From: Candidatus Bathyarchaeota archaeon
Lineage (GTDB): Archaea > Thermoproteota > Bathyarchaeia > 40CM-2-53-6
DNA length: 64,000 nucleotides
Assembly (NCBI GenBank): GCA_005888635.1
Contig: VBAW01000018.1
Span: forward strand, 11,391 to 75,390
Reading direction: 5' to 3'
The translations under genes and the position numbers were made by a program. Shown piece by piece: positions 13,803 to 42,989 of the stretch. A model generated the notes under the pieces. It was not told the origin of the DNA. It searched no databases and was given only the letters and a program-made list of their open reading frames with translations. Position 1 is the first letter of the stretch, and each line of letters begins with the position of its first letter.

Positions 13803-14855
13803 TCAGTTCAGGGGTTTTCCCTTTATTCTGATTCCCGGTCTCTTTTCAACGCGTCCGATTCGTGTCGCGCCTTGTCGGTGCTTGCGGAATGCATGAATTA
13901 CCCGTTCCGATTGAGTCTCCGGGCAGATTACTATCAAGCCTACGCCCATATTGAATGTCCGGTACATTTCCGGGTCCTGTATACGTCCGGCTCGTTTTAT
14001 GAGGTGGAATATTTCCGGTGGCTTCGGTAATTCGTCAAGTTCTGCCCCCCGTCCTGCCTGTCCGATCACCCTTTCCAACTTCAAGAAGGCTCCTCCACCC
14101 GTGATGTGAGCGAGGCCATGAACCTCCGCTTTTTCCATTAGTTCCTTCACGGCCTTTACGTAGATTCTTGTAGGCTCTAGAAGTTCCTTGCCCAGGCTTC
14201 TACCGATCCCCGGCGGCGTCTCGTTGAGCCTGTATTTCTCTAAGAGTATTTTCCTTGCTAGGCTAAATCCGTTTGAATGGATTCCCGAACTGGCAGCTCC
14301 GATTATGATGTCGTCTTCTCGGACCCTATCGCCGAGAATCAGGCTTTTCTTCTTGCAAATTCCCGCCGCGAATCCGACCAGATCGAACCCTCCGTTCTCT
14401 GCTAGCAGTTCTGGAACGATGGCTGTCTCTCCCCCGACAATCGCCATCCCCGCCTCCTTTGCACCTTTCACGAGGCCGATCGCGACCTCATTCACGATCG
14501 CGCGGTCAGGTTTGTTCATGGCCATGTAGTCGAGGAAGCTGATGGGCTCCGTGCCCGTGCAGATCAGATCGTTTGCGCACATCGCGACACAATCAATCCC
14601 GATTGTGTCATACTTTTTCATCATCTGAGCAATGAGGACCTTCGTCCCGACACTATCAGTGTGGAGGCTCAACACCTTCCCTTGACCAAGGTCGACAAGA
14701 CCCGCGTAATGTCCAATCGGAAAGATCGGCCATCCAACCTTGCCTTTTCGCGTCGCAAAAGTCGACTCTAGTCTACGAGCCAACAGCTTGTGAGTTTCGT
14801 GGATGTGCCTCGCGTCGACCCCTGCCTTAGCATAGGTCATGCGAGGCTGAGGCAA
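13803..14855 (-). CDS. purM: AIR synthetase
   Basis: TYAKAGVD, TDSVGTK, GGETA, SSGIHSNGFSL, HITGGG, TFNMGVG. Confidence 0.97.
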   Translation of the reverse strand: MPQPRMTYAKAGVDARHIHETHKLLARRLESTFATRKGKVGWPIFPIGHYAGLVDLGQGKVLSLHTDSVGTKVLIAQMMKKYDTIGIDCVAMCANDLICTGTEPISFLDYMAMNKPDRAIVNEVAIGLVKGAKEAGMAIVGGETAIVPELLAENGGFDLVGFAAGICKKKSLILGDRVREDDIIIGAASSGIHSNGFSLARKILLEKYRLNETPPGIGRSLGKELLEPTRIYVKAVKELMEKAEVHGLAHITGGGAFLKLERVIGQAGRGAELDELPKPPEIFHLIKRAGRIQDPEMYRTFNMGVGLIVICPETQSERVIHAFRKHRQGATRIGRVEKRPGIRIKGKPLN

Positions 14856-14856
14856 T

Positions 14857-15708
14857 CTACAGCTTCAGTCCAGTCAAACGCTCATACGCGATAATGTACC
14901 GCCGACTCGTCTCTTGGATAAGATCTGCCGGAAGGTCCGGTGGACGAGGCGTGTGTCTTCCCTCTCTTCTCGCCTCGTCAAGGGTCTTCTTGTAGCCGAC
15001 CTTTCCAAGCCAGTCCCGGATCGGCTGCTTGTCATAACTCTCCTGCGTCTTCCCAGGCGAGTAGTCCGCCCTTGGCCATAATCTGAACTCGTCAGGTCCA
15101 ATCGAATCTGCCAGCACAATGTTCTCTTGCTTGTCGAAGCCGAATTCGAGTTTGAGATCAGCAAGTATGAATCCAGCATTCTCAGCTCTCAGAGACATCT
15201 TGTTGTAAATCTCGACCGTCTTCTTCCTAACTGCATCCAACTGTGCCGGGTCCAACCAGCCCTCTTCCTCAATCTGCTCCATCGTCACAGGCTCGTCTTT
15301 CACATCAGACTTTGTCGTAGGGTCAAAATATGGTTCAGGAAGTTTCGCTGCCAAGATTGGTTCTACAGGAATCGAGATTTCGCTTTTCGTCAATCTCTCG
15401 TAGAGGCTTCCGTAAAGATAACCACGGACCACAGCCTCCACAGGAATCATCTTCAGCTTTCTAACAACCATCCGATTCGTATCTTCGAGCCGGACCATGT
15501 GGTGTGGCGTGTTGAGATTGTTGAACCAGAACGCTGCTAGCTTAGCTAGAACTTCGCCCTTTCTTGGAATAGTTGATGGCAGGACCACGTCATAGGCTGA
15601 GACTCTGTCGGTGAAGATGAAGAGCAGTTGGTCATGTCCTATCTCGTAGACGTCTTTGACTTTTCCCCGTTTGAACGGAGTTGATAGATTCTCCATGGAC
15701 TCTAACAT
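14857..15708 (-). CDS. purC: SAICAR synthetase
   Basis: GKVKDVY, TDRVSAYD, PVEAVVRGY, ADLKLEFG, YDKQ. Confidence 0.95.
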   Translation of the reverse strand: MLESMENLSTPFKRGKVKDVYEIGHDQLLFIFTDRVSAYDVVLPSTIPRKGEVLAKLAAFWFNNLNTPHHMVRLEDTNRMVVRKLKMIPVEAVVRGYLYGSLYERLTKSEISIPVEPILAAKLPEPYFDPTTKSDVKDEPVTMEQIEEEGWLDPAQLDAVRKKTVEIYNKMSLRAENAGFILADLKLEFGFDKQENIVLADSIGPDEFRLWPRADYSPGKTQESYDKQPIRDWLGKVGYKKTLDEARREGRHTPRPPDLPADLIQETSRRYIIAYERLTGLKL

Positions 15709-15709
15709 C

Positions 15710-16144
15710 TTACAGCTGTCCGCTACGATACTGTGTGAGCTTCTTGGAGACTCCCACATCCGACAGGGCCAGGATCTCTGCAGCTAGCAGTCCAGCGTTT
15801 GTGCCGTTGTCGAGGCCAACCGTCCCAACGGGGACCCCTGAGGGTAACTGGACGATCGCAAGGATTGAGTCGAGGTTCAGCCTTCCCGAAACCGGGACCC
15901 CAATAACAGGTTTCAACGATAGTGATGCGACGAAGCCCGGGAGGGCCGCTGAGAGACCTGCGATCGTGATGAACACATCCGCCTTCGACGTCTCAACATA
16001 CTTGTCAAGTTCCTTGTGATTCCGATGACTAGACAGGACCTTCGTCTCATAGGGTACTCCGAGTTTACCCAGGATGGTCTCGGCTTTCTTTGCGATCTCT
16101 CGGTCGCTCTCGGATCCCATTAGAATGCTGACGCTTTTTGTCAA
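15710..16144 (-). CDS. purE: AIR carboxylase / N5-CAIR mutase
   Basis: MGSESD, SSHR, AGLSAALPG, PVIGVP, PSGVPVGTV; TTGA overlap with the upstream stop. Confidence 0.95.
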   Translation of the reverse strand: MTKSVSILMGSESDREIAKKAETILGKLGVPYETKVLSSHRNHKELDKYVETSKADVFITIAGLSAALPGFVASLSLKPVIGVPVSGRLNLDSILAIVQLPSGVPVGTVGLDNGTNAGLLAAEILALSDVGVSKKLTQYRSGQL

Positions 16145-16737
16145 TGGCGACACCGTATCACGCGGGACTCCGTGACGACCATGTCTACTGGTACATCAAA
16201 TTGATCCCTAGGCACCTTGCCGATGAGTTGTATGTTGAAAGCCAGACCGGCCGAGCGGACGTGTTGGGGCAGGTTCTTGATGACTCGGTCAAAGTATCCC
16301 CGTCCCCAGCCCAATCGGTAGCCTTCACGGTCCCAGACGATGCCTGGAACAAAGATCACGTCCACAGTATCAAGGCTGACCGGATGAACGTTCTCAGGTT
16401 TAGGCTCAAGAATGCCGAACGTGCCGGGAGCCAGTTCGCTTCCCAAGTCTTTGATCTCGCTGAAGAACAGTTCGATGTCTCCCTTCTTCACGACTGGAAT
16501 GAGGACGCGTTTTTCTTGGTCAAGAGCCGCTCGGATCAGGGGTCTAGTGTTGACCTCGCTGTCTTTGTTAACGTAGCACGCTATTCCTCTCGCTCGAACA
16601 TATTCGTGTAGATGCAGTACTTGATCGATAATGTCTTGGCTCTTCTGCTCGATCTCTCCAACTGACTGGCGATCTCTCAAGCGAAGCATGTACCGTCTGA
16701 GATTCTCCTTCTCGACGGCAATCTGAGCTTCGGTCAA
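16141..16737 (-). CDS. 5-formyltetrahydrofolate cyclo-ligase
   Basis: SEVNT, FGILEP, VPGIVWDREGYRLGWGRGYFDR, DVPVDMVVTE. Confidence 0.93.
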   Translation of the reverse strand: MTEAQIAVEKENLRRYMLRLRDRQSVGEIEQKSQDIIDQVLHLHEYVRARGIACYVNKDSEVNTRPLIRAALDQEKRVLIPVVKKGDIELFFSEIKDLGSELAPGTFGILEPKPENVHPVSLDTVDVIFVPGIVWDREGYRLGWGRGYFDRVIKNLPQHVRSAGLAFNIQLIGKVPRDQFDVPVDMVVTESRVIRCRH

Positions 16738-16798
16738 GCCATCACACTGGCTCCTTCAATCATGAGACAACAAAATGGGGGAATGGTTCCGCGTATGA

Positions 16799-17698
16799 TC
16801 ATGCCCGTTGCATCTGAAGATACTCGCTCTCAATCTTGCCGCCTGACTTGATGTACAGTAAGGCTCCCGGGGCTAGAGATTCAAGATACGAGAAGGTGTA
16901 CACCGTCATCTTGTCCTGGCCTAACTTCTTCGCCCAACTTGAGGCTTGGCTCATCATGGTTAGGCCGTATCCTCGGCCTCGATGTTTGGGAACGACAAAT
17001 GTTCCCCGAAACCGGGCGTCTCCAGTTTTGTAATAGTCGGGGATTAGTCCGGTTAGTCCAACGACCTCTTTTCCTACGGATCCGGAGAGCCATCGTTCGC
17101 CCTTTTTGATTCCTTCCTGGAATTTCTGGCCGACAGCGTCTTCGCCTCCCTGTTCCTCGGTTCGCCAGTCCCAGTATGGACGGATAGATTCGACAAGAAC
17201 CTTGGCGATTTCTGGAGCTGTCTTCTCAGTGACTTCCCTGACCTCAACTTGCTTGGTAGGCGATTCAGGGGTCTTTGTTAGGTCCCATGTTATCCTGAAA
17301 TCTCTTCGAATGGGTTTGAATGCGAAGCTCTTGTAAACATCGACGTAGGGCTGCATCGAGGGTGTTGTGGCTCTGAGGAACTCGGGCTTCTTTGTCTCGA
17401 CATACTGTAGGGCTCTGCTGAGCAGTTTTTCCACAGCATAGACCCGGGATTGGGGGCGCTTGGCCGCGAGGTATCTTATGACCAGCCAGTTCTTCCGGGG
17501 AAGATTTGTGACTGCCACGCAGCCGACAATGGATCCTTTGTCTTCAGCGACGAAACAACCAGTTGGGTCAAAAGCGCTGGACGATAGTACATTCTTCGTG
17601 CCGGGAAGCTCGATAAAGCCCGAAGTCCATTCTTGCAGGTTCTTCGGTAACGTTCCAAGCTCTTCTGGCTCTGCATTCCTCACAATTGATTGAGGCAG
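16799..17698 (-). CDS. Tandem GNAT-family acetyltransferase
   Basis: Two GNAT folds, VVPKHRGRGYG acetyl-CoA loop; start probably CTG 17698 or GTG 17683. Confidence 0.8.
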   Translation of the reverse strand: MPQSIVRNAEPEELGTLPKNLQEWTSGFIELPGTKNVLSSSAFDPTGCFVAEDKGSIVGCVAVTNLPRKNWLVIRYLAAKRPQSRVYAVEKLLSRALQYVETKKPEFLRATTPSMQPYVDVYKSFAFKPIRRDFRITWDLTKTPESPTKQVEVREVTEKTAPEIAKVLVESIRPYWDWRTEEQGGEDAVGQKFQEGIKKGERWLSGSVGKEVVGLTGLIPDYYKTGDARFRGTFVVPKHRGRGYGLTMMSQASSWAKKLGQDKMTVYTFSYLESLAPGALLYIKSGGKIESEYLQMQRA

Positions 17699-17714
17699 AC
17701 TCTTCTTCCCTCTA

Positions 17715-18569
17715 TCATCCTCTCGTTTGGATGCTGGCCGCTTGGACCGTGTTCTCAACCAAGCACGCAACGGTCATGGGCCCTACCCCACCAGGGACGG
17801 GGGTAATGAACCCCGCTAGTTTGCTAACAGCTTCGAAATCCACGTCGCCCCGGAGTTTCCCCTCGACTCGCGTCAGACCCACGTCAACAACAGCCGCTTT
17901 GGGCTTGACGTGTTCTGGTTTGATCTGGAAGTTCTCTCGTCCCACAGCGCTGACAAGGATGTCAGCAGTCTTTGTTATCTGGGCGAGATTAGGCGTCTTT
18001 GAATGGGATATCGTTATGGTCGCGTCCCTGTTGAGAAATAGGTTTGCGAGCGGCCTGCCGACCAGTGTGGTTCGATTGATGATGACTGCCCGCTGCCCGG
18101 CAATAGGGACTTTGTAATGGGACAATAGTTTGATGATTCCTTTAGGAGTGCATGGTACGAGTTCTTCCTTGCCAGCTGCCAGCTTTCCCTGGTTGATCGG
18201 GTGGAGTCCGTCCACGTCCTTGTAGGGAATTATTCTCTCAATGATTCTATCCTCATCAAAGCCGCGTGGGAGGGGAAGCTGGACAAGGATCCCGTGGACT
18301 CTAGGATTCGTGTTCAGCTGGCCGAGCAGAGCCTCAACCTTGTCTTGAGGCGTGTTGGCTGGCAGATGATGGTTCTCGGACTGGATCCCAACTTCTTCGG
18401 CGGCCTTGTGTTTTCCCCTGAGATAGCTAGAGCTGGCAGGGTCGTCGCCGACCTGAATGGTCGCGAGGAACGGCTTGATACCTCGTTTCGCTAGCTGTCC
18501 AACTTGGAGTGCGACCTGTTTCTTGATCTCAGAGGCAATCAGCCTACCATCTAAAATTACCGCAGTCAA
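17715..18569 (-). CDS. folD: Methylene-THF dehydrogenase/cyclohydrolase
   Basis: GILVQLPLP, KDVDG, PCTPKG, DVG, TPVPGGVGPMT. Confidence 0.97.
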   Translation of the reverse strand: MTAVILDGRLIASEIKKQVALQVGQLAKRGIKPFLATIQVGDDPASSSYLRGKHKAAEEVGIQSENHHLPANTPQDKVEALLGQLNTNPRVHGILVQLPLPRGFDEDRIIERIIPYKDVDGLHPINQGKLAAGKEELVPCTPKGIIKLLSHYKVPIAGQRAVIINRTTLVGRPLANLFLNRDATITISHSKTPNLAQITKTADILVSAVGRENFQIKPEHVKPKAAVVDVGLTRVEGKLRGDVDFEAVSKLAGFITPVPGGVGPMTVACLVENTVQAASIQTRG

Positions 18570-19189
18570 GTTTTGAGCACGACTCTCCGCCCTTCGATCT
18601 TCAACTGATCCTCAGTGAAGAGCCGGATCGCTTCTGGGTAGAGCCGATGCTCTTGGCGCAGGATTCTTTCTGATAGAGTCTCAACCGTATCATCGTCTCT
18701 GACTGGGACATGGGCTTGGAGGATTATTGGCCCTGCATCCACCTCCTTTGCGACGAAATGGACAGTGGCCCCCGAGACCTTCACCCCAAGCTCCAACGCG
18801 CGTTTCTGCGCTTCGAGGCCGGGGAACCCGGGAAGCAGCGCCGGATGCACGTTCATGATTCTGTTATGATAATGATCGACGAATTGTGGGCTGAGGATGC
18901 GAAAGTAGCCTGCAAGAGCGATGAGACCGTCTTTGGGAGTAACACCATGAGCTTCCAAAGTGGCGATAGTCTTCCGATCATACTCAGTGTCCATCTTTGG
19001 CAGTCCCTTATCGTCGAGGATTGCCGTCGGCACGTTATGTTTCCGGGCTATCTCAAGCGCTCCGACGCTTGGCTTGTTGCTGACGACAACACTCACCCGG
19101 CCCTTCGTGATGTACTTTCTATCAACGGCATCCAAGATCGATTCTAGATTCGAGCCGCGCCCCGAGACTAGGACGCCGATAGGAACCAA
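18566..19189 (-). CDS. purN: GAR transformylase (folate-dependent)
   Basis: SGRGSNL, LAGYFRIL, NVHPALLP, GATVHFV, DAGPII, EHRLYP. Confidence 0.97.
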   Translation of the reverse strand: MVPIGVLVSGRGSNLESILDAVDRKYITKGRVSVVVSNKPSVGALEIARKHNVPTAILDDKGLPKMDTEYDRKTIATLEAHGVTPKDGLIALAGYFRILSPQFVDHYHNRIMNVHPALLPGFPGLEAQKRALELGVKVSGATVHFVAKEVDAGPIILQAHVPVRDDDTVETLSERILRQEHRLYPEAIRLFTEDQLKIEGRRVVLKT

Positions 19190-19191
19190 GA

Positions 19192-20025
19192 CTATCTCCC
19201 GGATCCCGTCCGGCTCTTTCTAAGATATGCGGTCATTTGGCGACGAGTATCTAATGTGATGTCGAAAGCGATGATTCGAATAGACGCGAATCCAAGAAAC
19301 CTCCTCGCATCTCTCTTGAGTATCACGTGGTCCTTCCTAACTCCAATTCCCTTGTAAGTCCTGATGGCTGACTTGATAACTGGTTTCCAGCGCGATGGGA
19401 GTCTCTTCAAAGCCCACCTCGCCGCTCCCAACTTCGACACGACGATACCTCCGTTCTTGAAATCGTAGATGAGCCTGCAGAGATTGAGGACCGACCACCA
19501 GGGATCACTGTCAATGATCTTTCTCGCATAAGCTAGTTGTCGATAGAGTTCGCTTCTGATTTCCGGCCATTTTGCTGGTGAGAAGATTCTGCTAGCTCTT
19601 GGGCCGTAGAGTCGAATGTATGCCGAACGAGCGAAATGTTCTCCGTGGATAGCCCATGCATTGTCGGAGCCTCCACGATGAATCCTGCCGTGAGCTCCGT
19701 AGACAAGACTTTTCGGGCTCTCCCGCCTTCGAGCCGAAGCATTGGGAATGTAGAATCCGTCCAGTTTACTTCCGAACTCGAACCTGGCGGCCAAAGCTCG
19801 ATGTAGCCGATCTAAGCTCTTGATCTCTTTCGCATTGAGAGTTCGTCGAATTACAACGTAGAAGTCTATGTCTCCAGCTCTGGGCTCGAATTCTGGAAAA
19901 GCTATGGAACCGTGCAGGTATGCTCCCGCGAGGTTGTTGCCAAGATTCGTCAGTAGCCCCTCTCGATAACTCTCGACGAGGTGCTTGATGTCTGGTGGGA
20001 GACTGTTGAGTCGGGAAGTCGAGAG
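19192..20025 (-). CDS. Aminoglycoside adenylyltransferase-like nucleotidyltransferase (NTase plus DUF4111-like domain); start codon unresolved
   Basis: Frame extends 77 codons upstream of the ORF-track start and contains GAYLHGSIAFPEFEPRAGDIDFYVV; C-terminal VLNLCRL...SKLGAARWAL. Confidence 0.75.
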   Translation of the reverse strand, partial: LSTSRLNSLPPDIKHLVESYREGLLTNLGNNLAGAYLHGSIAFPEFEPRAGDIDFYVVIRRTLNAKEIKSLDRLHRALAARFEFGSKLDGFYIPNASARRRESPKSLVYGAHGRIHRGGSDNAWAIHGEHFARSAYIRLYGPRASRIFSPAKWPEIRSELYRQLAYARKIIDSDPWWSVLNLCRLIYDFKNGGIVVSKLGAARWALKRLPSRWKPVIKSAIRTYKGIGVRKDHVILKRDARRFLGFASIRIIAFDITLDTRRQMTAYLRKSRTGSGR

Positions 20026-20043
20026 TCAGCACTCCATTCCATT

Positions 20044-20460
20044 TTACTCGACGTTTGCCCGGTGGAATCCTTTTCTGATTTTTTCTGCAATTCTCTTCAT
20101 CTCCTCTGCTGGTATGTCTTTGACGTTCTGCGCGTTCACGAATTCTCCATGACCATCTCCTGAAAACCTCGGGACCACATGGACGTGCGCGTGTAGCACG
20201 CCCATTCCTCCAATATCAGCGACCACCCACTCCGTGTTCATCGACTTTTGGAGAGTCTTCGCGATCATCCGAACGGTCTCGAAATATCTTCCAACTTCCG
20301 GGACATCCCAGACCCAACGATGATGCTTCTTCGGGGAGACCAAGGTGTGCCCTGGGTTTAGCGGTCGAATGTCGAGAAAAGCGATAAAATTCTCGTCCTC
20401 AAAGATCAAGTAAGAGGGCAGTTCTTTTCGTACGATCTTACAGAATATACAGTCTTTCAC
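20044..20460 (-). CDS. HIT-family nucleotide hydrolase
   Basis: CIFCKI, FLDIRP..PGHTLV, HAHVHVVPR. Confidence 0.93.
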   Translation of the reverse strand: MKDCIFCKIVRKELPSYLIFEDENFIAFLDIRPLNPGHTLVSPKKHHRWVWDVPEVGRYFETVRMIAKTLQKSMNTEWVVADIGGMGVLHAHVHVVPRFSGDGHGEFVNAQNVKDIPAEEMKRIAEKIRKGFHRANVE

Positions 20461-20466
20461 TCTGTC

Positions 20467-21756
20467 TCACGTTTTGATGGGTTCTAATTGTCTACGACGT
20501 ATCTGATCGCTTCCGATATCAGTTCGGTAGTGCATTCCTGGAAAGTCGACCGATTTGCCGATGACCGAATAGACGTCGTTTCGAGCTGATTCGACGCTGG
20601 GTCCTGTCGCCGTCACGCTAAGGACCCGTCCGCCCGCGGTTACGAGTTCCCCGTTTGAGTTTCTGGCGGTTCCTGCGTGAAATACCACAATGTTACTACT
20701 GCCTGAAGGTCGAAGCGTAACTGGGTCTCCCGTTGAGGGATTTTCTGGATATCCCCTGGATGCGAGGACAACTACTACGGACGCGGACTTGGAAGATTCT
20801 GGTATCGGCGCTCTGTCCGAGTTGGCTGCAACTGCGCTAAGGTGTGCGAATAGTCCGCCCTTTACTAGTGGCATTATTCCCTGAGCTTCAGGATCTCCGA
20901 AGCGCGCGTTGAACTCTAACACGTAGGGGTCTTCAGTCCCGTGCTTTACGATGACATTCAGGTATAGAACTCCCCGGAACGGAGCACCTTCTTTCGCCAG
21001 GGCTGTTGCTGCGGGGTCCAGGATCTTCTTTCTGACCTTCTCGAAGAGCGATTGGGTCACTGAGGGAACTGGAGTATAGACGCCCATTCCTCCTGTGTTT
21101 GGTCCAGAGTCGCCGTCGTAGGCTGGCTTGTAGTCTTGAAAGACGGGCGCTAGCCATTGGACCCGATCTGCCGAAACGGTTGCGGTGAAGCTTGCCTCCC
21201 ATCCATCGATGAATTCCTCCATCACGATTCGCCTAGGCTCTCGTAATAGTTCCCGTTGAATCGCAGCTTCAGCCTCGCGCCTGTCTCTCGTGACGGTCGT
21301 TCCTTTGCCCGCCGCGAGCCCATCTGCTTTGATCACCCATGGAGGGCCGAGCTCGTCGAGAGCTCTGTTCGCTTTAGTCCTGTCAGTAAAAGTCTCCCAG
21401 CGCGGAGTCGGTAGAGCGTATCTAGTGCAGAGGTCTTTCGCGAAGCTCTTTGAGGTTTCAATACGAGCTGATTGCTTGTCGGGTCCGAAAATAGGGAGAT
21501 TCTGTTTTTTGAACGTGTCGACTATTCCTTCGCTCAGTGGAGCCTCGGGTCCGACCACAGTCAGGTCGATTCCGTTTTTCGATGCAAATGATGCGAGCTC
21601 GTTAGAATTGTTCGAGGCAATAGGAATGCAGGTCCCGATTTCGGCAATGCCTGGATTGCCTGGGGCCGCGTAAACCTCCTCGACGTTCCGATCCTTCGAG
21701 AGTGCCCAAGTAAGAGCGTGCTCCCGGCCGCCGCCTCCGACGATGAGAATCTTCAT
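20467..21756 (-). CDS. purD: GAR synthetase
   Basis: GGGGREHAL, VGPEAPL, KADGLAAGKG, GPNTGGMG, EFNARFGDPE, GGRVL, YRTDIG. Confidence 0.97.
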   Translation of the reverse strand: MKILIVGGGGREHALTWALSKDRNVEEVYAAPGNPGIAEIGTCIPIASNNSNELASFASKNGIDLTVVGPEAPLSEGIVDTFKKQNLPIFGPDKQSARIETSKSFAKDLCTRYALPTPRWETFTDRTKANRALDELGPPWVIKADGLAAGKGTTVTRDRREAEAAIQRELLREPRRIVMEEFIDGWEASFTATVSADRVQWLAPVFQDYKPAYDGDSGPNTGGMGVYTPVPSVTQSLFEKVRKKILDPAATALAKEGAPFRGVLYLNVIVKHGTEDPYVLEFNARFGDPEAQGIMPLVKGGLFAHLSAVAANSDRAPIPESSKSASVVVVLASRGYPENPSTGDPVTLRPSGSSNIVVFHAGTARNSNGELVTAGGRVLSVTATGPSVESARNDVYSVIGKSVDFPGMHYRTDIGSDQIRRRQLEPIKT

Positions 21757-21779: not shown

Positions 21780-23321
21780 TCAGGCCTTCATTTCTTCTCG
21801 GGTCCGAAGCACGGGATTCTTCTTCAATCCAAGATACTCACCTGTCACACAGGCGAAGCACATTTCGCCCTGCTTGAGCCCAATTCCCTTGCTCAGTCCT
21901 TCGATATCATTGTAGCCGAGACCATCGACGCCGATCTCATTACCTACCTTCGTGTTCAATTCTGGAATCGACAATACGTCGCCATCAACCTTGGTCGCCA
22001 GCAGTTCCCCGTGCGTTGGAAAGTCGATGCCCATGTAACATGGGTGGCGGATAGGTGGATAAGTCACGACCATGTAGACCTTCTTGGCACCCGCGTCGCG
22101 CAGCGCCCGTACGATGTTCTTGCTGCTTGTCCCCCGTACTATGCTGTCATCGACCACGATGACGTTCTTCCCATCGACTACGGGTTTGATGGTTATGATC
22201 TCCCTGACGATCTCTTCCCGACTCTCATCGGTAGGCTCGATGAAGCTCCTGAGACTTCCCTTCCTCCGATAACGGTCTTTCATCAAACCCTCTTCCATAG
22301 GAATCCCACTCTCTTCAGAATATCCAAGAGCTGCAGGTCGAGCGGAATCAGGGACCGGTATCACCACGTCTGCTTTGAACGGATACTTCCGAGCAAGGAC
22401 CCTCCCTAGTTGTCGTCGTGCCTCGTAGACGTATTGGTCCTCGATCTTGCTACTCGGATGCGCGAAGTAAGTGTATTCAAACGCGCAGTGATGGTGTGGA
22501 GCTTCTGCAAACTTTGTGACGGTTACACTGTCTTTGTTGAGACGGACCAGTTCTCCCGGCTGAACGTCTCGGACAAGCTCGGCGTGCAGAGCAGTTAGCG
22601 CACAGCTCTCGGAGGCTACAATGTTAGTCTTGGTTTCTTCGTCCCAACCTAGGCATAGTGGTCGAAAGCCTGATTCGTCCCTGGCGGCGAGCACCTCGCC
22701 CTCGTGTGTGACAATGACGAAGCTGTAGGACCCGCTGATTTCCTTCGCGAGTCGGGTGAAGGCTCGTGTCCAATCATGTTCTCGACGATAGTGCTGGAGT
22801 AGTCGGTACCCTGCCAGTTTCGTGTCCGAGTTTGAGTCTATAATCGGGAATTCGCCTTTGACCAGAGGCTCCAGGTCTTCCGTGTTGGCAATGGTCCCGT
22901 TCTGGGCAATGGCAAACTCTCCATGAATATCCAATGGGTGAGCATTCTCTAGATTCGTTCGTCCCCTAGTAGAATAACGAATATGTCCGATACCTCGGTT
23001 ACTCTCCAAACGGAGGATTTTTCGGGCGTTGGCTGCGGCTCCCACACCGATTAGCCCCAAGCCTTTGATGATAGGCTCGTTGGGCATGGCTAGGCCCCAG
23101 GATTCCTGGCCTCTGTGCTGAAGCGCAGCTAGTCCTTTGACGATACGCTCGGAGACGGGTTCATTCTTTAACGAATAGATTCCAATGACTCCGCAATGTT
23201 CCCCTACTGAGCGGCTTCCACCTTCAACGTGGATTTGTGGAGTCTGGATTCGCTCCGGGCGAGCGAGGACACGATCTTTCGCTCGGACAATGGGATCGGT
23301 ATTGAAGCCCCTCAGGTTCAA
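21780..23321 (-). CDS. purF: Amidophosphoribosyltransferase
   Basis: EHCGVIG Ntn Cys, LQHRGQES, HIRYST, CAFEYTYF, VDDSIVRGT, CYMGID, CFAC; alternative start GTA at 23207. Confidence 0.97.
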   Translation of the reverse strand: MNLRGFNTDPIVRAKDRVLARPERIQTPQIHVEGGSRSVGEHCGVIGIYSLKNEPVSERIVKGLAALQHRGQESWGLAMPNEPIIKGLGLIGVGAAANARKILRLESNRGIGHIRYSTRGRTNLENAHPLDIHGEFAIAQNGTIANTEDLEPLVKGEFPIIDSNSDTKLAGYRLLQHYRREHDWTRAFTRLAKEISGSYSFVIVTHEGEVLAARDESGFRPLCLGWDEETKTNIVASESCALTALHAELVRDVQPGELVRLNKDSVTVTKFAEAPHHHCAFEYTYFAHPSSKIEDQYVYEARRQLGRVLARKYPFKADVVIPVPDSARPAALGYSEESGIPMEEGLMKDRYRRKGSLRSFIEPTDESREEIVREIITIKPVVDGKNVIVVDDSIVRGTSSKNIVRALRDAGAKKVYMVVTYPPIRHPCYMGIDFPTHGELLATKVDGDVLSIPELNTKVGNEIGVDGLGYNDIEGLSKGIGLKQGEMCFACVTGEYLGLKKNPVLRTREEMKA

Positions 23322-23354
23322 TTACAATCCTGTATCAATTTCGGGCCGTGTATA
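23321..23354 (-). promoter_or_regulatory. TATA-like box plus putative purine operator upstream of purF
   Basis: Minus strand TATACA-CGGCCC-GAAATTGATACAGGATTGTAAT; 18/22 identical to the element upstream of purS. Confidence 0.7.
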
Positions 23355-23375
23355 GGTCTTTCTTGACACGATCGT

Positions 23376-25601
23376 CTAAGTCGATGATACTGCAGCGTCC
23401 ATCGTCTTGGACAGAGTCTTGGACCAGGCGTCGACCGCAACTGACAATGGGATTGTGATGATAGGGTCTTCATGGGACTCTAGTTGGATCTTGCCGCCTT
23501 GAACTCTACCTATCTTCGCGGTCCTAATCCTCGCAGCTCTGAGTCTGCGCATTATGCGGGGCGTGTTTTTCGGCCGTGACTCCAAGACGAATCTGGGCTT
23601 CGATTCTGAAAACAGTAACTGAGCGATGTTAGTCGTCTTGGTTGGGACCTTGTCTAGATTTACCGTGAACCCTTTCTGGCCTTGGATGGCCATTTCAGCC
23701 AGACTTACAGCCAGTCCCCCTTTGGATATGTCGTGAGCGGCTTCGACCACTCCGCTTTCGATAACCTTCGTGACGGTTCGGAGGAGTTGTCTCTCTGTTC
23801 TCAGATTGACCTTCGGGACCCGTCCACCTACTAGTCCCTGAACGCTCTCATAGTATTCGCTTCCGCCGAGTTCTGGCAAGGTTGTTCCAACGATTAGCAG
23901 GTCATCTTCTTCCTTGGCGAGAGCCGAGCCAATCTTCGGTGCTCTGGCATTCCGGAGTCCGACGGCAGCAATTACAGGTGAAGGCTTGATGGCAGTTCTT
24001 GTCTGAGTGTCTTCGTTGTAGAAACTGACTTTTCCTCCAACACACGGGACCCTTGTTGCCTTGAGATAGTCTCGGATAGCCCGTATTGCTTCTTTGAAGG
24101 TCCAGAAGACCTCGGGGTTGCCGGGGTTTCCGTATTGAAGGTGGTCGACAACGGCGATTGGCTCGGCCCCTGTAGCGACGAGGTTGGAGAAAGCCTCGCT
24201 GAGAATTCCAACCGTTCCCCAGTATGGGTCCAGGTACACCTGTTTGCTGTTGCCATCGGTGGTAATTGCCAGTGTTCGGCTGTTAGGAAGTCTAATGACG
24301 GCGCTATCTGCTTGTCCCGGTCTGATGATTGTTCGTAGTCCTACTTCGAAATCGTACTGGCGGTATATCCATGCTCGACTGCAAATGTTCGGGCTGCCAA
24401 GGAGCGCCAACAGAGTCGCGTTGAGGTCCTCCGGAATCTGAGGTTCAGGAGCGTCGGATAATTCGTCAATGTACGGGGGCTTTCTGCCGGACCGCGGAGA
24501 CAAAGGTGCTTCTGCGACAAACTTGGCAGGAGCCTCAGCGGCCAAGTGGTTTTGATGCATGATGCGGAGTATTCCGTCATTGGTGAGATGGCCTATGCGT
24601 GAGTAGCCTAGTTCCCATTTGTCCAGGATCCGAGTGAGCTTCTCTTCATTCTTCGACTTGACAATAACTATCATGCGTTCCTGGGACTCACTGATCATGA
24701 TCTCGGCAGGGCGCATGCCCGGCTCCCGGATCCGAACATTGTCAAGGTTGATCTCCATGCCCATCCCAGCCTTCGAGGCCATCTCCGAGAGTCCACAAGC
24801 CAAGCCTCCACCGCCCAGGTCTTTCATTCCCTGAACAATACCCGCATCGACGGCTTCTAGGACCGCTTCGATGATTAGTTTCTTGGTGAACGGGTCCGGG
24901 ACTTGGACAGCCGATCTCTCGCTATCCGATCTTTCTGTTAGAGTTCTGCTTGCGAAACTGGCACCTTGAATCCCGTCGCCTCCGGTGCTTCCTCCTATGA
25001 CATACACTAGGTACCCTGGACGGATGGATCCGCCAGGAACGAGCTTGTCCCTTAGGCCGAGGCCGAGACATACAACATCCACGAGACAGTTTCGTTCGAA
25101 GGAGGTGTCAAACTCTACTTCGCCTCCTACCGTCGGTACTCCTATGCAGTTCCCGTACGAGCCTATTCCGCGGATCACGTTATCGAAGAGCCAGCGACTA
25201 TGGCTGCTGCCCAGAGCTCCAAATCGGAGGGGGTCGAGAAGCGCAATCGGACGAGTCCCTAGTGAGAGGATGTCCCGGACGACGCCTCCGACACCTGTGG
25301 CCGCGCCACCGCAGGGATCGATGGCGCTCGGATGATTGTGGGACTCAATGTGAAGCGTAACGACCCAGCCATTTCCAACATCAATGACCCCAGCGTCAGA
25401 CCCTGGTCCAACTATTACTCGAGGACCCTTGCTAGGCAGAAGCCTAAGCAGCGGCTTGCTCGACTTGTAGCTGCAATGCTCACTCCACTGCGCCTCGAGC
25501 ATCGCCCATTCGACCTCGTTGGGCTCGCGGCCGAGTTTCTTGATTGCGTACCGGATCTCTTCATCTGTCAGATTCGGTTTCTGAACTTGTACCGTTGTCA
25601 T
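23376..25601 (-). CDS. purL: FGAM synthetase, synthetase subunit
   Basis: WSEHCSYKSS, ESHNHPS, DLGGGG, SESQERM, GGKVSFYN, HDISKGG. Confidence 0.97.
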   Translation of the reverse strand: MTTVQVQKPNLTDEEIRYAIKKLGREPNEVEWAMLEAQWSEHCSYKSSKPLLRLLPSKGPRVIVGPGSDAGVIDVGNGWVVTLHIESHNHPSAIDPCGGAATGVGGVVRDILSLGTRPIALLDPLRFGALGSSHSRWLFDNVIRGIGSYGNCIGVPTVGGEVEFDTSFERNCLVDVVCLGLGLRDKLVPGGSIRPGYLVYVIGGSTGGDGIQGASFASRTLTERSDSERSAVQVPDPFTKKLIIEAVLEAVDAGIVQGMKDLGGGGLACGLSEMASKAGMGMEINLDNVRIREPGMRPAEIMISESQERMIVIVKSKNEEKLTRILDKWELGYSRIGHLTNDGILRIMHQNHLAAEAPAKFVAEAPLSPRSGRKPPYIDELSDAPEPQIPEDLNATLLALLGSPNICSRAWIYRQYDFEVGLRTIIRPGQADSAVIRLPNSRTLAITTDGNSKQVYLDPYWGTVGILSEAFSNLVATGAEPIAVVDHLQYGNPGNPEVFWTFKEAIRAIRDYLKATRVPCVGGKVSFYNEDTQTRTAIKPSPVIAAVGLRNARAPKIGSALAKEEDDLLIVGTTLPELGGSEYYESVQGLVGGRVPKVNLRTERQLLRTVTKVIESGVVEAAHDISKGGLAVSLAEMAIQGQKGFTVNLDKVPTKTTNIAQLLFSESKPRFVLESRPKNTPRIMRRLRAARIRTAKIGRVQGGKIQLESHEDPIITIPLSVAVDAWSKTLSKTMDAAVSST

Positions 25602-25804
25602 TGGTCCTGTTCTCTTGCCTTGTGCATAAGGAGAACGGTTCGTGAGCCTACTATCGCTCCTGCGATGAACCCGATTATCAGCCCCAAGACGCTGTTTATG
25701 GCATAGTAGCTGACGAGCCCCGCAGCAAGTCCAGCAATCAGACCAGCGAGGATCGCGCGCGGAGTAGGACTTGGCCTTCGATTATCACCTGTCGAGCTAC
25801 TCAG
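25598..25804 (-). CDS. Small Gly-rich two-TM protein, probable CTG start
   Basis: AILAGLIAGLAAGLV / GLIIGFIAGAIVG; CTGA overlap with the upstream stop and ATGA overlap with purL. Confidence 0.65.
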   Translation of the reverse strand: MSSSTGDNRRPSPTPRAILAGLIAGLAAGLVSYYAINSVLGLIIGFIAGAIVGSRTVLLMHKAREQDQ

Positions 25805-25992
25805 GTAACGGCCTCCTTCTTTGCGATTAGAGCTACGCCAAGTGCTATCATGACGGCGCCATACGCTCCGCCGAAGATTCCTAGGCCAAAGTAGTAGCTG
25901 GTGCTTGATAATCCCACCAAAGATACACATCCCATTATTATTGCGAAGACGCCGAGCGCGATTCTACGCTTGGAACGGGCAGATTCGCTCAT
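25801..25992 (-). CDS. Small Gly-rich two-TM protein
   Basis: 63 aa, two hydrophobic segments, ATGA overlap with the upstream ORF. Confidence 0.65.
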   Translation of the reverse strand: MSESARSKRRIALGVFAIIMGCVSLVGLSSTSYYFGLGIFGGAYGAVMIALGVALIAKKEAVT

Positions 25993-26243
25993 CTTGGAGG
26001 ACGGCTCCTCTGAGATGTGTAAAAGTACAGACCTGCGGTTATCAACGCTCCTCCGGCGAAACCGAGAAAGAAACCCTGCAGAGTGAAGTTTGGACCAGCC
26101 AGAAGACCAACGACTAATCCAGCAAGCAGTCCTACAACGATGATCCCAAACACGGATGGGGGAGGAGCACCGGCATATGATCCAGTTGAGGGGGCTGTGT
26201 TTTCCGCTGACGAAACGTTGAGCTGTGAACTGTGAAAGTTCAT
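25989..26243 (-). CDS. Small Gly-rich two-TM protein
   Basis: GLLAGLVVGLLAG / GFFLGFAGGAL; ATG 1 nt after the purQ stop. Confidence 0.65.
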   Translation of the reverse strand: MNFHSSQLNVSSAENTAPSTGSYAGAPPPSVFGIIVVGLLAGLVVGLLAGPNFTLQGFFLGFAGGALITAGLYFYTSQRSRPPR

Positions 26244-26244
26244 C

Positions 26245-26958
26245 CTAAGCTTCAGGCCCGTGCAACGTTCTCATCATAGAGTCGAAGATGACTCTGCCAT
26301 CAGTCTGATTGTCAAGTGACAATACTGGTATTGAGGCTCTTTCGGGATGCGGCATCAGGCCCATTACATTGCCCTTCTGATTACATACGCCGGCGATGTT
26401 GTCGATTGATCCGTTAGGATTACCCGCTTCTGTAGCTTCTTTCTTTTCATTCACGTATCTGAATACGATCTGCTGGTTTCTCTCCAGTTCTGGAATTTGT
26501 TCTTTATCGAGATAATAACGTCCCTCATTGTGCGCGATTGGAATTTCCAATACCTGTCCTGCATTGGCCCTTTTCGTGAAGGGCGTGCGTGTGGTTTCGA
26601 CTCTCAATCTAGTCCATGTGCAAACGAAGCGGAGTGAGCTATTACGCAACACCGCTCCTGGTAGGAGTCCAGCCTCTACCAATATTTGGAATCCATTACA
26701 TATTCCCAGAACTGGCTTGCCACCTTCAGCCGCCTCCTTGACTATTCTGAGGCTGGGACTGGTGGCTGCGATCGCGCCTGCTCGGAGATAGTCGCCGTAG
26801 CTGAACCCGCCGGGAAGGACGTACGCATCATAATCTTCATGCGCCAGATCCTTGTGCCAGACAAGATCTGTCTTTGCCTTGACTACGTCCCGGAGGATTT
26901 CTAGGGCGTCTAGGTCGCAGTTGCTTCCCGGGTATTGGATTACTGCGACCTTTCCCAT
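26245..26958 (-). CDS. purQ: FGAM synthetase glutaminase subunit
   Basis: PGSNCD, PGGFSYGDYLR, GICNGFQ, IAHNEG, NPNGS, MPHPER. Confidence 0.97.
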   Translation of the reverse strand: MGKVAVIQYPGSNCDLDALEILRDVVKAKTDLVWHKDLAHEDYDAYVLPGGFSYGDYLRAGAIAATSPSLRIVKEAAEGGKPVLGICNGFQILVEAGLLPGAVLRNSSLRFVCTWTRLRVETTRTPFTKRANAGQVLEIPIAHNEGRYYLDKEQIPELERNQQIVFRYVNEKKEATEAGNPNGSIDNIAGVCNQKGNVMGLMPHPERASIPVLSLDNQTDGRVIFDSMMRTLHGPEA

Positions 26959-26965
26959 TACTTGG

Positions 26966-27229
26966 TTATCCTACTATTCTGACTTGGATTGTGTGAGCTG
27001 CAGGGTTGTAGATTCGCAGGTCATCGGAAAGCTTGCGGACTATCGCGCGAGCGTCTTCGGGACTGTTGGCTTCGACGTTCATGCGTAGGAGTTTGCCTGC
27101 GCGGACGCCGGTTACTTGTTTGTAGCCGCCTTTCAAGATGAGATTCTGATGTATCGTCTCCCCTTCAGGGTCTCGGGCTAGCGGCTTATTCTCGACGATG
27201 ACTTCGACCACATAGCTGCCGGGAGTCAT
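26966..27229 (-). CDS. purS: FGAM synthetase PurS subunit
   Basis: DPEG, VRAGK, YNP; directly upstream of purQ. Confidence 0.93.
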   Translation of the reverse strand: MTPGSYVVEVIVENKPLARDPEGETIHQNLILKGGYKQVTGVRAGKLLRMNVEANSPEDARAIVRKLSDDLRIYNPAAHTIQVRIVG

Positions 27230-27261
27230 TACAAGTTTGTATTAATTTCCGCGGCTATTTA
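27228..27261 (-). promoter_or_regulatory. TATA-like box plus putative purine operator upstream of purS
   Basis: Minus strand TAAATA-GCCGCG-GAAATTAATACAAACTTGTAAT running into the ATG; contains the inverted repeat TACAA-AC-TTGTA. Confidence 0.7.
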
Positions 27262-28188
27262 CCCCTTCTTTAGCACGTTCATGCTAGGGACCGCCGTCGG
27301 CTGTCCTTCTTTCCTGAAGATCAGGCAATACTGGTGATGTCTATTCCCCACCCATGCGTTGAAAACTCCCAGCGGGAGGAGAGTCTTGTCATCCTGACAC
27401 CACACCTTCTCATCTTTCGGAGTCCAAGCAAAGGGTTCCTTAGAGAGCGTTGAGACTGTGTCAAATGCCAGGGGGTACATTTTTCCCTCAGTGAAGACAT
27501 TGTTCGTTATGATCGTCAGGTAGCCTTTCGGTTTCATCACCTTGTAGACTTCATCGAAGGCGCGTTTCAGCGCATGCTGGAAATCCTGATAATCCCCGAT
27601 GTTACCGATCTCATCAGGATTATCACTATAAGTCGTATCTAGTCCTTTTTCCGCGCGACCCTTTTGGCGCATATGACTCCTTCTCAGTTGGTTCCAGTAA
27701 GGAGGCGAGGTGATGCAATAATCGGCCGGAGGGAAAGCGTTCTCCTTCCAAATCTTCGATAGTTTTGCCGAATCAGCAGTAATGATCTTGGCCCAGGACG
27801 ATTTACTTTTTGTCGCTTCCTTACTTGCCCTTCTCTGAGCTAGCACATCTCGGACTCGCTCCTTCGAAATGCCGGCATATTTCTTGACAATCTCAAATCC
27901 TATTCCTGAGCGCCCCGTTTCCAGTGCTGCCACCAAGGTGCTCCCAGTTCCAACAAAAGGGTCGACGACTATCTCGCCCTTCTTTGTGAAGAAAGAAACA
28001 AATTCCCTCACTAGGGATTCCGGAAAAGAAGCAGGATGTCGAATCTTCCGGTCTTCCCTAGGGTCAGGCCTATGGACGAACCACGACTTTGTGAACTTGA
28101 TCCAGTCCCTTCCAGAAAGGTCGTTCAGCTTGTTGCTGCGAGTCACCTTTGCTGAGGCTTGGCGATGAACAGTTTCAGTCTCCATCAT
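27259..28188 (-). CDS. N4-cytosine/N6-adenine-type methyltransferase (orphan)
   Basis: HPASFP, DPFVGTGST (motif I) preceding ITSPPYW (motif IV), MKPKG. Confidence 0.88.
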   Translation of the reverse strand: MMETETVHRQASAKVTRSNKLNDLSGRDWIKFTKSWFVHRPDPREDRKIRHPASFPESLVREFVSFFTKKGEIVVDPFVGTGSTLVAALETGRSGIGFEIVKKYAGISKERVRDVLAQRRASKEATKSKSSWAKIITADSAKLSKIWKENAFPPADYCITSPPYWNQLRRSHMRQKGRAEKGLDTTYSDNPDEIGNIGDYQDFQHALKRAFDEVYKVMKPKGYLTIITNNVFTEGKMYPLAFDTVSTLSKEPFAWTPKDEKVWCQDDKTLLPLGVFNAWVGNRHHQYCLIFRKEGQPTAVPSMNVLKKG

Positions 28189-28278: not shown

Positions 28279-29040
28279 GTGTTGGTCCCTAAACTACGAG
28301 AGTTTACTCACGAAGGTCGGTTGGGGATCGCGCACCAAATTTCGGACCGCATTGTTGAAAAATATGGGAGCGATATTTTAGCAGTTTATGTCTGTGGCTC
28401 AACATCAAAGAAACTTGACCGTCCCTTTTCCGACTTGGAACTGATCGTTGTGGTTCGTGATCAATCGGAGATTCCGATGAAATACTATCTTCACCAAGGA
28501 CTCATCATACAGATTGAATATCTCAAATCTTCGAGCATGCTAGCTGCCGCAGAGCAGCTTACAGACAACTGGCCTTGGGAGGCTGACCAGTACAGGAACA
28601 GAATTGCTCTTTACGAGCGGGATGGGTGGTTTAGAAGGCTCGATGAGGCGGTCGGTAAGAATGACAAAGCGGGTTCTGTTGAAGCGATTCGAAAGTCGTT
28701 CATGATGATGACTGAGTCTATGGCTGTTATGAAGAATGCGATGCTGACAAACGACAGGGTCGAAATATTGTCGAGAGGACGCGTGCTTGCGGAGGATGCT
28801 GCGAGAATAGTCCTTCTCTTGAATCGAAGGTATGTAACGACGACCAGCTGGCTCTGGAAGATCGTCTTCGATTTACGAACTAAACCTAAGGATTTCAAGG
28901 AGCTTGTCGAGAAGATGTCAGGGTTCGTCCCGACTACTCGGGAAGAAGTTGTCGCTTCCTCTGAGAGACTGTACAAAGAGATGAGTGAGCTTGTCACTCA
29001 GGCTGGTGTCAAAATAGAATGCGATGATTTGTGGGTTTGA
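28279..29040 (+). CDS. Kanamycin nucleotidyltransferase (ANT(4'))-like protein
   Basis: KYGSDILAVYVCGSTSKKLDRPFSDLELIVV; W-x4-QY segment; LLNRRYVTTTS; length about 253 aa as in KNTase. Confidence 0.8.
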   Translation: MLVPKLREFTHEGRLGIAHQISDRIVEKYGSDILAVYVCGSTSKKLDRPFSDLELIVVVRDQSEIPMKYYLHQGLIIQIEYLKSSSMLAAAEQLTDNWPWEADQYRNRIALYERDGWFRRLDEAVGKNDKAGSVEAIRKSFMMMTESMAVMKNAMLTNDRVEILSRGRVLAEDAARIVLLLNRRYVTTTSWLWKIVFDLRTKPKDFKELVEKMSGFVPTTREEVVASSERLYKEMSELVTQAGVKIECDDLWV

Positions 29041-42392: not shown

Positions 42393-42989
42393 TTGCCCGG
42401 TAACGCCCTACTCTCAGTCTACGACAAAACAGGGCTGGACCGGCTAGCCTGGATATTCTCGAAGCTTCAGATCAAGATGCTTGGCTCTGGAGGGACTGCC
42501 GAGGCTGTCCGGAAACTTGGCTTCCATGTCGTCGAGGTTTCAGAGTATACTCAAGTCTCGGAGATGCCTGGGGGACTCGTGAAGACGTTACATCCAAGGA
42601 TTCATGGCGGAATACTCGGAGACTGGAATGACGCCGAGCAGCGGAAGTATCTGGAAGCGAACCGAATTGAGCCCCTAGATTTTGTGGTGGTAAATCTGTA
42701 TCCCTTCCAAGAGGTTGTGAAGGTTGATCCCAAGGATCTTCGGAAGGCCGTTGACAATATTGACATTGGAGGCGTTGCGCTAATACGGGCCGCGGGGAAA
42801 GGTGCATTGTTGAACCAACGAGTTGTGCCAGTGACTTCGCCGCTTCAGTATGAGGGCGTGGTCGCGGAGCTGGAGAGAAAAGGGTATGTAGGAAACGATC
42901 TGCGACAGCGCCTGGCCCGAGAAGCATTTGTTCTAACAGCAGACTATGACAAGGCAATACGGGACTACTTGATGGGTCAGGCTCGATGA
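42393..42989 (+). CDS. purH: IMP cyclohydrolase (N-terminal MGS-like half of PurH)
   Basis: ALLSVYDKTG, SGGTA, VKTLHPRIHGGIL, VVNLYPF, IDIGGVALIRAA, TADYD. Confidence 0.92.
   Translation: MPGNALLSVYDKTGLDRLAWIFSKLQIKMLGSGGTAEAVRKLGFHVVEVSEYTQVSEMPGGLVKTLHPRIHGGILGDWNDAEQRKYLEANRIEPLDFVVVNLYPFQEVVKVDPKDLRKAVDNIDIGGVALIRAAGKGALLNQRVVPVTSPLQYEGVVAELERKGYVGNDLRQRLAREAFVLTADYDKAIRDYLMGQAR

Follow-up and report, generated by a model that had tools for sequence, protein, structure and literature searches.

Paired 18-bp palindromes at archaeal purine gene promoters, with the phosphoribosyltransferase-family protein PRK08558 as candidate regulator

Paired palindromes at the purS and purF promoters

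We analyzed a 64,000-nt stretch of DNA (the window) from contig VBAW01000018.1 of a Candidatus Bathyarchaeota archaeon, and within it the promoters of two runs of purine biosynthesis genes, headed by purS and purF. Each of these promoters carries two copies of an 18-bp palindrome with the family consensus TTGACA-N6-TGTCAA, and judged by sequence comparison this is a purine-specific, widely conserved archaeal operator for which a helix-turn-helix (HTH) phosphoribosyltransferase (PRT) protein, PRK08558, is a plausible candidate regulator. The boxes very probably constitute a functional purine-regulon element. Coordinates are positions within the window; U denotes the upstream and D the downstream box of a promoter, and in our labels f stands for family, g for genus, G for genome (G000 being the genome of the window), C for contig, and L for locus.

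A first-pass annotation of the window had reported a shared operator-like 22-mer at the two promoters, and what it described could be found: the 22-mers lie at 27228-27249 and 23321-23342, both on the minus strand, are identical at 18 of 22 positions, each contain TACA-N4-TGTA, each start 6 nt past the TATA-like hexamer quoted there, and each head a run of pur genes, which NCBIfam models verified. They end at the start codons, ATG for purS and TTG for purF. The match is not due to chance. Using our own gene calls (2,113 genes), 1,393,615 pairs of start-aligned upstream regions were compared in this genome, and an identity of 18/22 was reached by 22 of them, with visibly paralogous genes in 17 of those 22. 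Over 60-mers, the observed 37/60 was reached by 24 pairs, the remainder being duplicated or paralogous genes as judged by their N-termini. No further site in the 2.18-Mb genome lies within four mismatches of the two-sequence consensus.

The likeness between the purS and purF promoters covers not 22 bp but about 62 bp without a gap, in the order 18-bp box, 7-bp purine run, TATA-like octamer, 9 bp, and second 18-bp box, the purine run being the putative element recognized by transcription factor B (BRE). An ungapped alignment of this U-BRE-TATA-D arrangement comprised 18 orthologous promoters from the genus and its sister genus, so the motif does occur in orthologous promoters, as the regulon proposed in the first-pass annotation would have it. 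The 22-mer is GAAA followed by the D box, i.e., the downstream copy of the palindrome; the U copy, which had been overlooked, begins 42 bp upstream of D and abuts the BRE. The distance between the starts of U and D is exactly 42 bp in 18/18 promoters, and the two boxes bracket the BRE-TATA. U has palindromic symmetry (permutation p 0.0002) and is similar to D (p 0.005), and it is this copy, upstream of the BRE and outside the 22-mer, that is the stronger and more conserved. The TACA-N4-TGTA element that had been put forward as the operator has its center displaced by 1 nt from that of the dyad, and six of the 18 orthologous promoters, two of them the window's own, have it in perfect form. It is not conserved, and the unit is instead the 18-bp dyad in two copies per promoter.

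Specificity within the genome

With a model trained without this genome, U and D together score 53.7 bits at purS and 45.5 bits at purF, and the next best site in the genome scores 11.6. The D model taken separately gives 29.9 and 28.5 bits at the two pur promoters versus 17.9 for the next site. No U/D-like bias was detected in 173 other candidate promoters, a pattern-based set, nor in 16 leaderless-like ones (a noisy set). The motif is purine-specific rather than a generic promoter element, in keeping with the earlier proposal. A box is absent upstream of purA, purB, the split purH, guaA, and guaB in this genome, and likewise before the internal pur genes purD, purN, folD, purE, purC, and purM. 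The predicted regulon in this genome is the purS and purF promoters alone.

Candidates for additional members were rejected. Below 16 bits, hits of a symmetric U+D model are no more numerous across the genome than those of permuted models, and a site at a Gar1/SMC-like promoter on contig C144 is kept in 2/18 orthologous promoters. At that locus (L200:1280-4382), the genes for Gar1 and transcription factor B (TFB) are divergent from one for a 636-aa SMC-like ATPase, which is followed by a 265-aa open reading frame (ORF). The version of the promoter with the box-like site is found in this genome and in G016, and the site is absent in 16 other relatives.

The box at the operon head in genus-level relatives

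In a sister clade of 12 genomes of the genus (clade B), purF is coupled to purL and has no promoter of its own, and purS is separated from purQ. The clade-B purS promoters keep their BRE-TATA without either box. The clade-B purQ promoter carries a near-perfect TTGACA-N6-TGTCAA abutting the BRE; in 11 of the 12 genomes this is the sole perfect copy in the genome, and the twelfth has a copy with two mismatches there. The arms of U are more conserved than its spacers in every comparison (0.95 v 0.67, 0.95 v 0.51, and 0.66 v 0.47), which indicates selection. Between the purF and purS promoters, spacers and linkers likewise resemble each other beyond chance (0.46-0.47), and the purS promoter of G029 is nearer to the purF type (0.65-0.82) than to the purS type (0.55-0.66). 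From these resemblances, the purS, purF, and purQ promoters probably share a common ancestor.

Outside clade B, a purine-looking cluster in one g5 genome holds a perfect box, located between guaB and the operon of an ABC transporter, and none of the perfect sites in six g3 genomes and G007 lies at purine genes. One-mismatch sites in the genus were also considered; at the 23 loci inspected among the matches listed, they fall mostly within ORFs or are unconserved, and one is another copy of the purQ promoter. A purQ search across the genome contigs returned distant homologues only. In two clade-B genomes, a one-mismatch box precedes an amino-acid-permease-like gene (L285:1439-1456 and L286:1491-1508), which echoes the permease sites of family f30 described below.

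Several further features of these pur loci were observed. Clade B (L071:7682-8983 and others) has a second, divergent purF-like gene after purF, of about 433 aa and about 31% identity, and its purD differs from that of this genome in being longer (about 510 aa). The purL ORFs at L066:7088-10816 (G026) and L074:6681-10400 (G021) are about 1,240 aa long, some 500 aa over the usual length, possibly owing to an intein or other insertion.

Recurrence in distant families

A model built from the genus-level U boxes was used to scan pur loci, 10-20 kb long, from other genera and families. The top sites fall in pur promoters: before purC in g3 (in pairs 63 bp apart), in the purC-purH gap of f6, in the purB-purS gap of f7, and before purF in f9. 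Across 80 loci, sites of at least 10 bits were found in 16/174 pur upstream regions versus 4/386 others in families encoding the candidate regulator, and in 1/26 versus 2/124 in families without it, counts for which no p-value is given since relatives are not independent.

Motif discovery was also carried out de novo at the pur upstream regions of each family. It yielded TTTACT-N6-AGTAAA at purC of f30 (5/5), TTWACA-N6-TGTWAA at purF of f20, TTGAC-N8-GTCAA in g3 (purC/purS), and weaker AT-rich dyads in f21 and f24 (purL), so that 18-bp even dyads emerge at f30 purC, f20 purF, g3 purC/purS, and f24 purL. Nothing comparable emerged in f12/f16 or f17. By its gene order purC-purS-purQ-purL, as in Saci_1607-1610 (PMC6101591; here and below, statements attributed to papers cited by PMC number refer to the passages cited), f30 appears to be Sulfolobaceae, and f17 is presumably Nitrosopumilaceae.

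Models built from f20 and f30 sites, all of which come from outside the class of the window genome, pick out the same two promoters. With four f20 sites, and with pairs held to 41-46 bp apart, a range picked from this genome, purS and purF rank 1 and 3 of 1,643 promoters, and 1/200 permuted models does equally well; with nine f20 and f30 sites they rank 1 and 4 of 1,643, equaled by 0/200 permuted models. When the spacing is left free at 18-80 bp, the ranks are 1 and 12 (f20) and 1 and 21 (f20+f30), again equaled by 0/200. In a foreign-family model run leaving out one f20 site, the best pairs are exactly U and D, and the 22-mer of the first-pass annotation therefore holds a genuine second copy.

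In four f30 genomes, the pattern had 60 matches against 19 for the control; the corresponding counts in five f17 genomes, which lack the candidate regulator, were 42 and 52. We inspected 56 loci, representing 57 of the 62 pattern sites in f30 and f20. Promoter sites that recur in f30 lie before purC, purT (two genomes), APC permease genes (three), and a flavin mononucleotide (FMN) reductase gene (two); single sites lie before genes for a xanthine/uracil-family permease, AdoMet synthetase, acetyl-CoA synthetase, and others. A second box is found 43-45 bp away in 12/13 such promoters; it overlaps the TATA box at purC and purT and lies just upstream of it at the permease genes. A site taken as upstream of rpiA is actually downstream of that gene and was not counted. 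The FMN reductase gene, predicted as NADPH-dependent, has a strong box directly after the TATA box in two f30 genomes (L425:1256-1273 and L434:1220-1237).

A candidate regulator

The first-pass annotation had invoked a purine-responsive regulator without naming one and had seen none in the pur cluster. No regulator gene lies in the cluster, as it said, but another contig encodes a candidate. It was reached from a perfect box in G024, which pointed to dcd and, after it, a 246-aa gene whose counterpart in this genome is G000:C69:29123-29863. Its product scores 260 bits with NF006328 (PRK08558) versus a cut-off of 184, over residues 6-237, and falls far below the cut-off of every model of stand-alone adenine phosphoribosyltransferase (APRT). 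Its best sequence match in PDB is Bacillus subtilis PurR (E 8e-11). A predicted structure (mean confidence score, pLDDT, 86) has four N-terminal helices and a PRT fold and matches APRT and PurR, the latter being among the top fold matches. Pfam assigns PF00156 alone to the candidate, with no PurR_N; homologues carry PF01381 HTH_3, and some PRK08558 homologues have automatically been named purine operon repressor by JGI. The HTH residues P39, L43, R45, and Y46 are invariant in 38 sequences, as are D187 and D188 of the phosphoribosyl pyrophosphate (PRPP) loop. A PRK08558 protein is present in 55/59 genomes of the family and 118/151 of the phylum, and in 0/22 of f17; the family also scores above cut-off in the Sulfolobus acidocaldarius and Haloferax volcanii controls.

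The regulator gene has a box in its own promoter at 9/9 f20 loci, where purF is also boxed, and at one of these self-sites both arms have changed to give a perfect palindrome. The box at the dcd promoter scores 25.6 bits in G024 and 13.7 in G006 and in 11 clade-B loci (1.4-17.2 bits) it covers the start codon; it is absent in this genome and its close relatives, in g2, and in g5. In G124, one of just two pattern matches (G124:C5:45186-45203) lies 337 bp before the match to the HTH-PRT gene.

We consider it quite likely that the boxes are bound by the PRK08558 protein of G000:C69:29123-29863. More broadly, we lean towards PRK08558, annotated as an adenine phosphoribosyltransferase, being the purine regulator that has been missing in archaea: a PurR analogue assembled independently, with an XRE-type HTH on a PRT sensor, that would control de novo purine genes and purine permeases over much of Thermoproteota via paired 18-bp palindromes four helical turns apart, and probably in Sulfolobus and Haloferax too.

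Proposed mechanism and alternative explanations

In the mechanism that we propose, two PRK08558 dimers would bind U and D, enclosing the BRE-TATA. A separation of 42-45 bp amounts to four helical turns and would place the dimers on one face of the DNA, where they could bind cooperatively, with the core promoter bent or wrapped. The D-bound dimer would cover the start site and the U-bound dimer would crowd TFB at the BRE, until an effector, probably PRPP, enters the PRT pocket and releases the repressor. That the effector would bind in this pocket follows the precedent of B. subtilis PurR, which binds its effector there. Repression seems a fairly likely mode of action because D covers the predicted start site here, the second box overlaps the TATA box in f30, and U would crowd TFB. 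As a whole, this reading, in which paired 18-bp operators bound by two PRK08558 dimers repress until PRPP or a related nucleotide signal releases them, strikes us as evenly balanced between right and wrong.

Several observations weigh against this mechanism. Immediately upstream of the BRE, where the promoters have a strong box, is the usual position of an activator (PMC4158304), D by itself is weakly palindromic (p 0.09), and the clade-B purQ promoters conserve the D position, which does not form a box there (mean -2 bits). Many of the second boxes of f30 are weak (2-19 bits), and 24/56 pattern loci were flagged as lying inside ORFs, one of them (purT) wrongly. Pooled de novo discovery over 154 regions was unsuccessful, and the dependence among relatives and the choice of spacing range, both noted above, count on this side as well. 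With regard to the protein, the regulator and dcd promoters of this genome have no box, and the self-site is confined to one genus (9/30 loci of the phylum, the best of the other 21 scoring 7.7 bits). Families f8, f27-f29, f32, and most of f10-f16 have a PRK08558 protein and no box at the pur promoters examined. The link between PRK08558 and the operator, a likely one, is circumstantial.

Since the promoters have sites on both sides of the BRE-TATA, activation from U is a serious rival, if on our estimate an unlikely one. The same protein on the same boxes would then be an activator that recruits TFB and the TATA-binding protein (TBP) from U when PRPP is high, with the weaker D shutting the promoter at high occupancy. 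For TrmBL1/Tgr, repression goes with sites downstream of TATA and activation with sites upstream of the BRE, a position that is also activating for Ptr2 and TFB-RF1 (PMC4158304). U is the stronger and more universal box, and its distance to the BRE, which it abuts, is fixed in three promoter types and in f21/f22, clade B retains U alone, and the TATA boxes of this genome are off-consensus, all of which would suit an activator; moreover, GfcR, an HTH-PRT protein of archaea, acts as an activator, and PurR of Lactococcus lactis is cited as one (PMC10838023). However, D covers the predicted start site here, the second box of f30 overlaps TATA at purC/purT, and the strongest box at the FMN reductase genes is directly downstream of TATA. 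It is also conceivable, though doubtful, that these are true purine operators read by another factor, e.g., one of the TrmB family, and that the HTH-PRT gene encodes an enzyme or an unrelated regulator. The f30 variant has TACT...AGTA half-sites like those of published TrmB motifs (PMC4158304), TrmB of Halobacterium salinarum touches purine genes (PMC3794607), and the NCBIfam name of the candidate is that of an adenine phosphoribosyltransferase. On the other hand, the published TrmB spacers differ from 6 bp (PMC4158304), PMC3794607 concludes that the purine genes are co-regulated by a TrmB-independent factor, and the HTH-PRT gene is favored by the self-site in f20 and by its link to dcd. A weak site before the TrmB gene of this genome (11.0 bits) is unconserved, scoring at most 9.1 bits in five relatives, that one overlapping a TATA-like box.

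Two other explanations would dispense with a regulator. The purF promoter could be a copy of the purS/purQ promoter, left by an operon split and kept by inheritance, which we regard as improbable as the whole account. Common descent itself is probably true, in line with the likeness of purF and purS spacers and linkers, the purF-like purS promoter of G029, and the promoterless purF of clade B. Nevertheless, the U arms are conserved over the U spacers in every comparison, and distant families have the same dyad at promoters that are not homologous (purC, purB/purS, purT, permeases), so that copying as the sole explanation is largely refuted. A generic core-promoter feature, namely an AT-rich melting region with the initiator of leaderless genes, would fit the overlap of D with the predicted start site and the TTGTAAT/TTCTAAT stretch kept at the unrelated Gar1/SMC-like promoter, and part of the right arm of D may double as an initiator. 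This explanation is highly improbable in view of the missing bias in the 173 candidate and 16 leaderless-like promoters, the gap in D-model scores between the two pur promoters and the next site, and the clade-B purS promoters, which have a BRE-TATA yet neither box.

Relation to known systems

B. subtilis PurR (TIGR01743; PDB 1p4a, 1o57, and 7rmw) has paired operators, and the system proposed here resembles it in this respect, with boxes 42 bp apart in this genome and 43-45 bp apart in 12/13 f30 promoters, clade B having a single box. Similar to PurR, the candidate joins an N-terminal DNA-binding domain to a PRT domain, and the targets are de novo purine genes and purine-type permeases. In contrast, the candidate scores 60.9 bits with TIGR01743 versus a cut-off of 258.7, over residues 84-221, i.e., the PRT domain only; the DNA-binding domain of its homologues is XRE/HTH_3-like and not the PurR winged helix; and the operator, which is not known to resemble the PurBox of B. 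subtilis, is a palindrome of 18 bp that would act on an archaeal promoter of the BRE-TATA type. Taken together, the system would work like Gram-positive PurR, outside that family. With regard to E. coli PurR, the candidate has no LacI-family domain (its matches being to PF00156 and NCBIfam PRT families only), and no genome search for LacI proteins was made.

Among archaeal systems, GfcR of H. volcanii likewise combines an HTH with a PRT domain and has been shown to bind promoters and to sense sugar phosphates (PMC10838023). It belongs to another, PyrE-like family (the candidate scores 32.8 with NF002620 versus a cut-off of 115), controls sugar catabolism, and is not expected to bind PRPP (PMC10838023). 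TrmB/Tgr and aCcr1 also use palindromic or short boxes, the position of which relative to the BRE-TATA sets activation or repression (PMC4158304). Their motifs differ from the dyad with a 6-bp spacer found here, being TATCAC-N5-GTGATA (TGM), TACT-N3-AGTA, and TACT-N7-8-GAGTA for TrmB/Tgr (PMC4158304) and AGTATTA/TGTATTAT for the aCcr1-box (PMC9976892).

For Halobacterium, a TrmB-independent purine regulator was inferred but not named, and no PurR homologue was found (PMC3794607). By term search, PurR is not mentioned in a survey of archaeal purine genes (PMC3261824), nor in PMC6316755 and PMC8305020. After ultraviolet (UV) irradiation of S. acidocaldarius, purT, purC/S/L, and the AzgA permease gene are down-regulated together (PMC6101591), and the targets predicted in f30 (the purC operon, purT, and a xanthine/uracil-family permease) match these genes. 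We found no description of the operator, or of PRK08558 as a regulator, in the literature searched, a search that did not extend to subscription papers and supplements. Gelfand, Koonin and Mironov (2000) reportedly predicted, by comparative genomics, a palindromic signal before purine synthesis and transport genes of Pyrococcus, and are not known to have named a regulator. That signal may belong to the same operator family and could pre-empt the operator. What the present finding offers for archaeal purine control is an operator together with a promoter architecture and a candidate protein that can be named, and, if true, it would call for the re-annotation of a widespread protein family.

The pur operons and neighboring genes

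By NCBIfam, the gene order is purS-purQ-two small ORFs-purL, followed by purF-purD-HIT-...-purN-folD-GNAT-fthC-purE-purC-purM (Table 1).

Table 1. Features of the purS and purF promoters and operons in the window.
Feature	Position	Strand	Remarks
purS U box CTAGCA-TGAACG-TGCTAA	27270..27287	-	abuts the BRE; also recovered by the model from other families
purS BRE-like purine run AGAAGGG	27263..27269	-	position relative to TATA, kept in orthologues; putative BRE
purS TATA-like box GTAAATAG	27255..27262	-	CTTAATAC/G in several relatives; predicted
purS D box TTAATA-CAAACT-TGTAAT	27228..27245	-	spans the predicted start site plus the AT of the start codon ATG
purS	26966..27229	-	first gene of purS-purQ-orf84-orf110-purL; predicted leaderless
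purQ	26245..26958	-	TIGR01737 above cut-off
purL	23376..25601	-	TIGR01736 above cut-off; last 5 bases overlap the purF U box
purF U box CTTAGA-CGATCG-TGTCAA	23363..23380	-	top-scoring site of the genome, by a model without this genome's boxes
purF BRE-like run GAAAGAC	23356..23362	-	putative BRE
purF TATA-like box CTATACAC	23348..23355	-	CTTAAGA- in relatives
purF D box TTGATA-CAGGAT-TGTAAT	23321..23338	-	42 bp after U; ends on the first base of the TTG start
purF	21780..23321	-	42-residue N-terminal extension before the catalytic Cys
genes 3' of purF	13803..21756	-	purD, HIT, aadA-like fragment, purN, folD, GNAT, fthC, purE, purC, purM; predicted same transcription unit

The N-terminal extension of PurF (23196-23321, minus strand) is free of stops and in frame in 9/9 orthologues with this promoter, with a length of 28-58 aa and a divergent sequence, which favors a leaderless TTG start and a propeptide. 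In relatives with purF coupled to purL, about three residues precede the catalytic Cys of PurF. A long propeptide was likely gained along with the leaderless TTG start, as far as the comparison of orthologues indicates. A riboswitch in the purF leader was considered and rejected, as there are no Rfam matches at the gathering threshold in the window and the region is this open extension.

The purS U box falls in the final codons of an upstream ORF (27259-28188, minus strand) that resembles DNA methyltransferases and is about 15 codons longer than in close relatives; its terminal part overlaps the U box, with the stop inside the TATA box. The two small hydrophobic ORFs between purQ and purL (84 and about 110 aa; 25598-26243, minus strand) recur in relatives and have no Pfam or NCBIfam match. 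ORFs resembling aminoglycoside nucleotidyltransferases lie at 19192-19794 (minus strand), inside the pur operon, and at 28279-29040 and 6128-6973 (both plus strand); the first two score far under the family cut-offs. The split purH (42393-44065, plus strand), 15 kb from the pur cluster and without a box, consists of MGS-like and AICARFT/IMPCHase ORFs whose stop and start overlap. Further along the plus strand, two paralogues of about 1,050 aa (47351-50512 and 51874-55026) flank a permease gene; they are rich in Cys and Thr and resemble ABC substrate-binding proteins.

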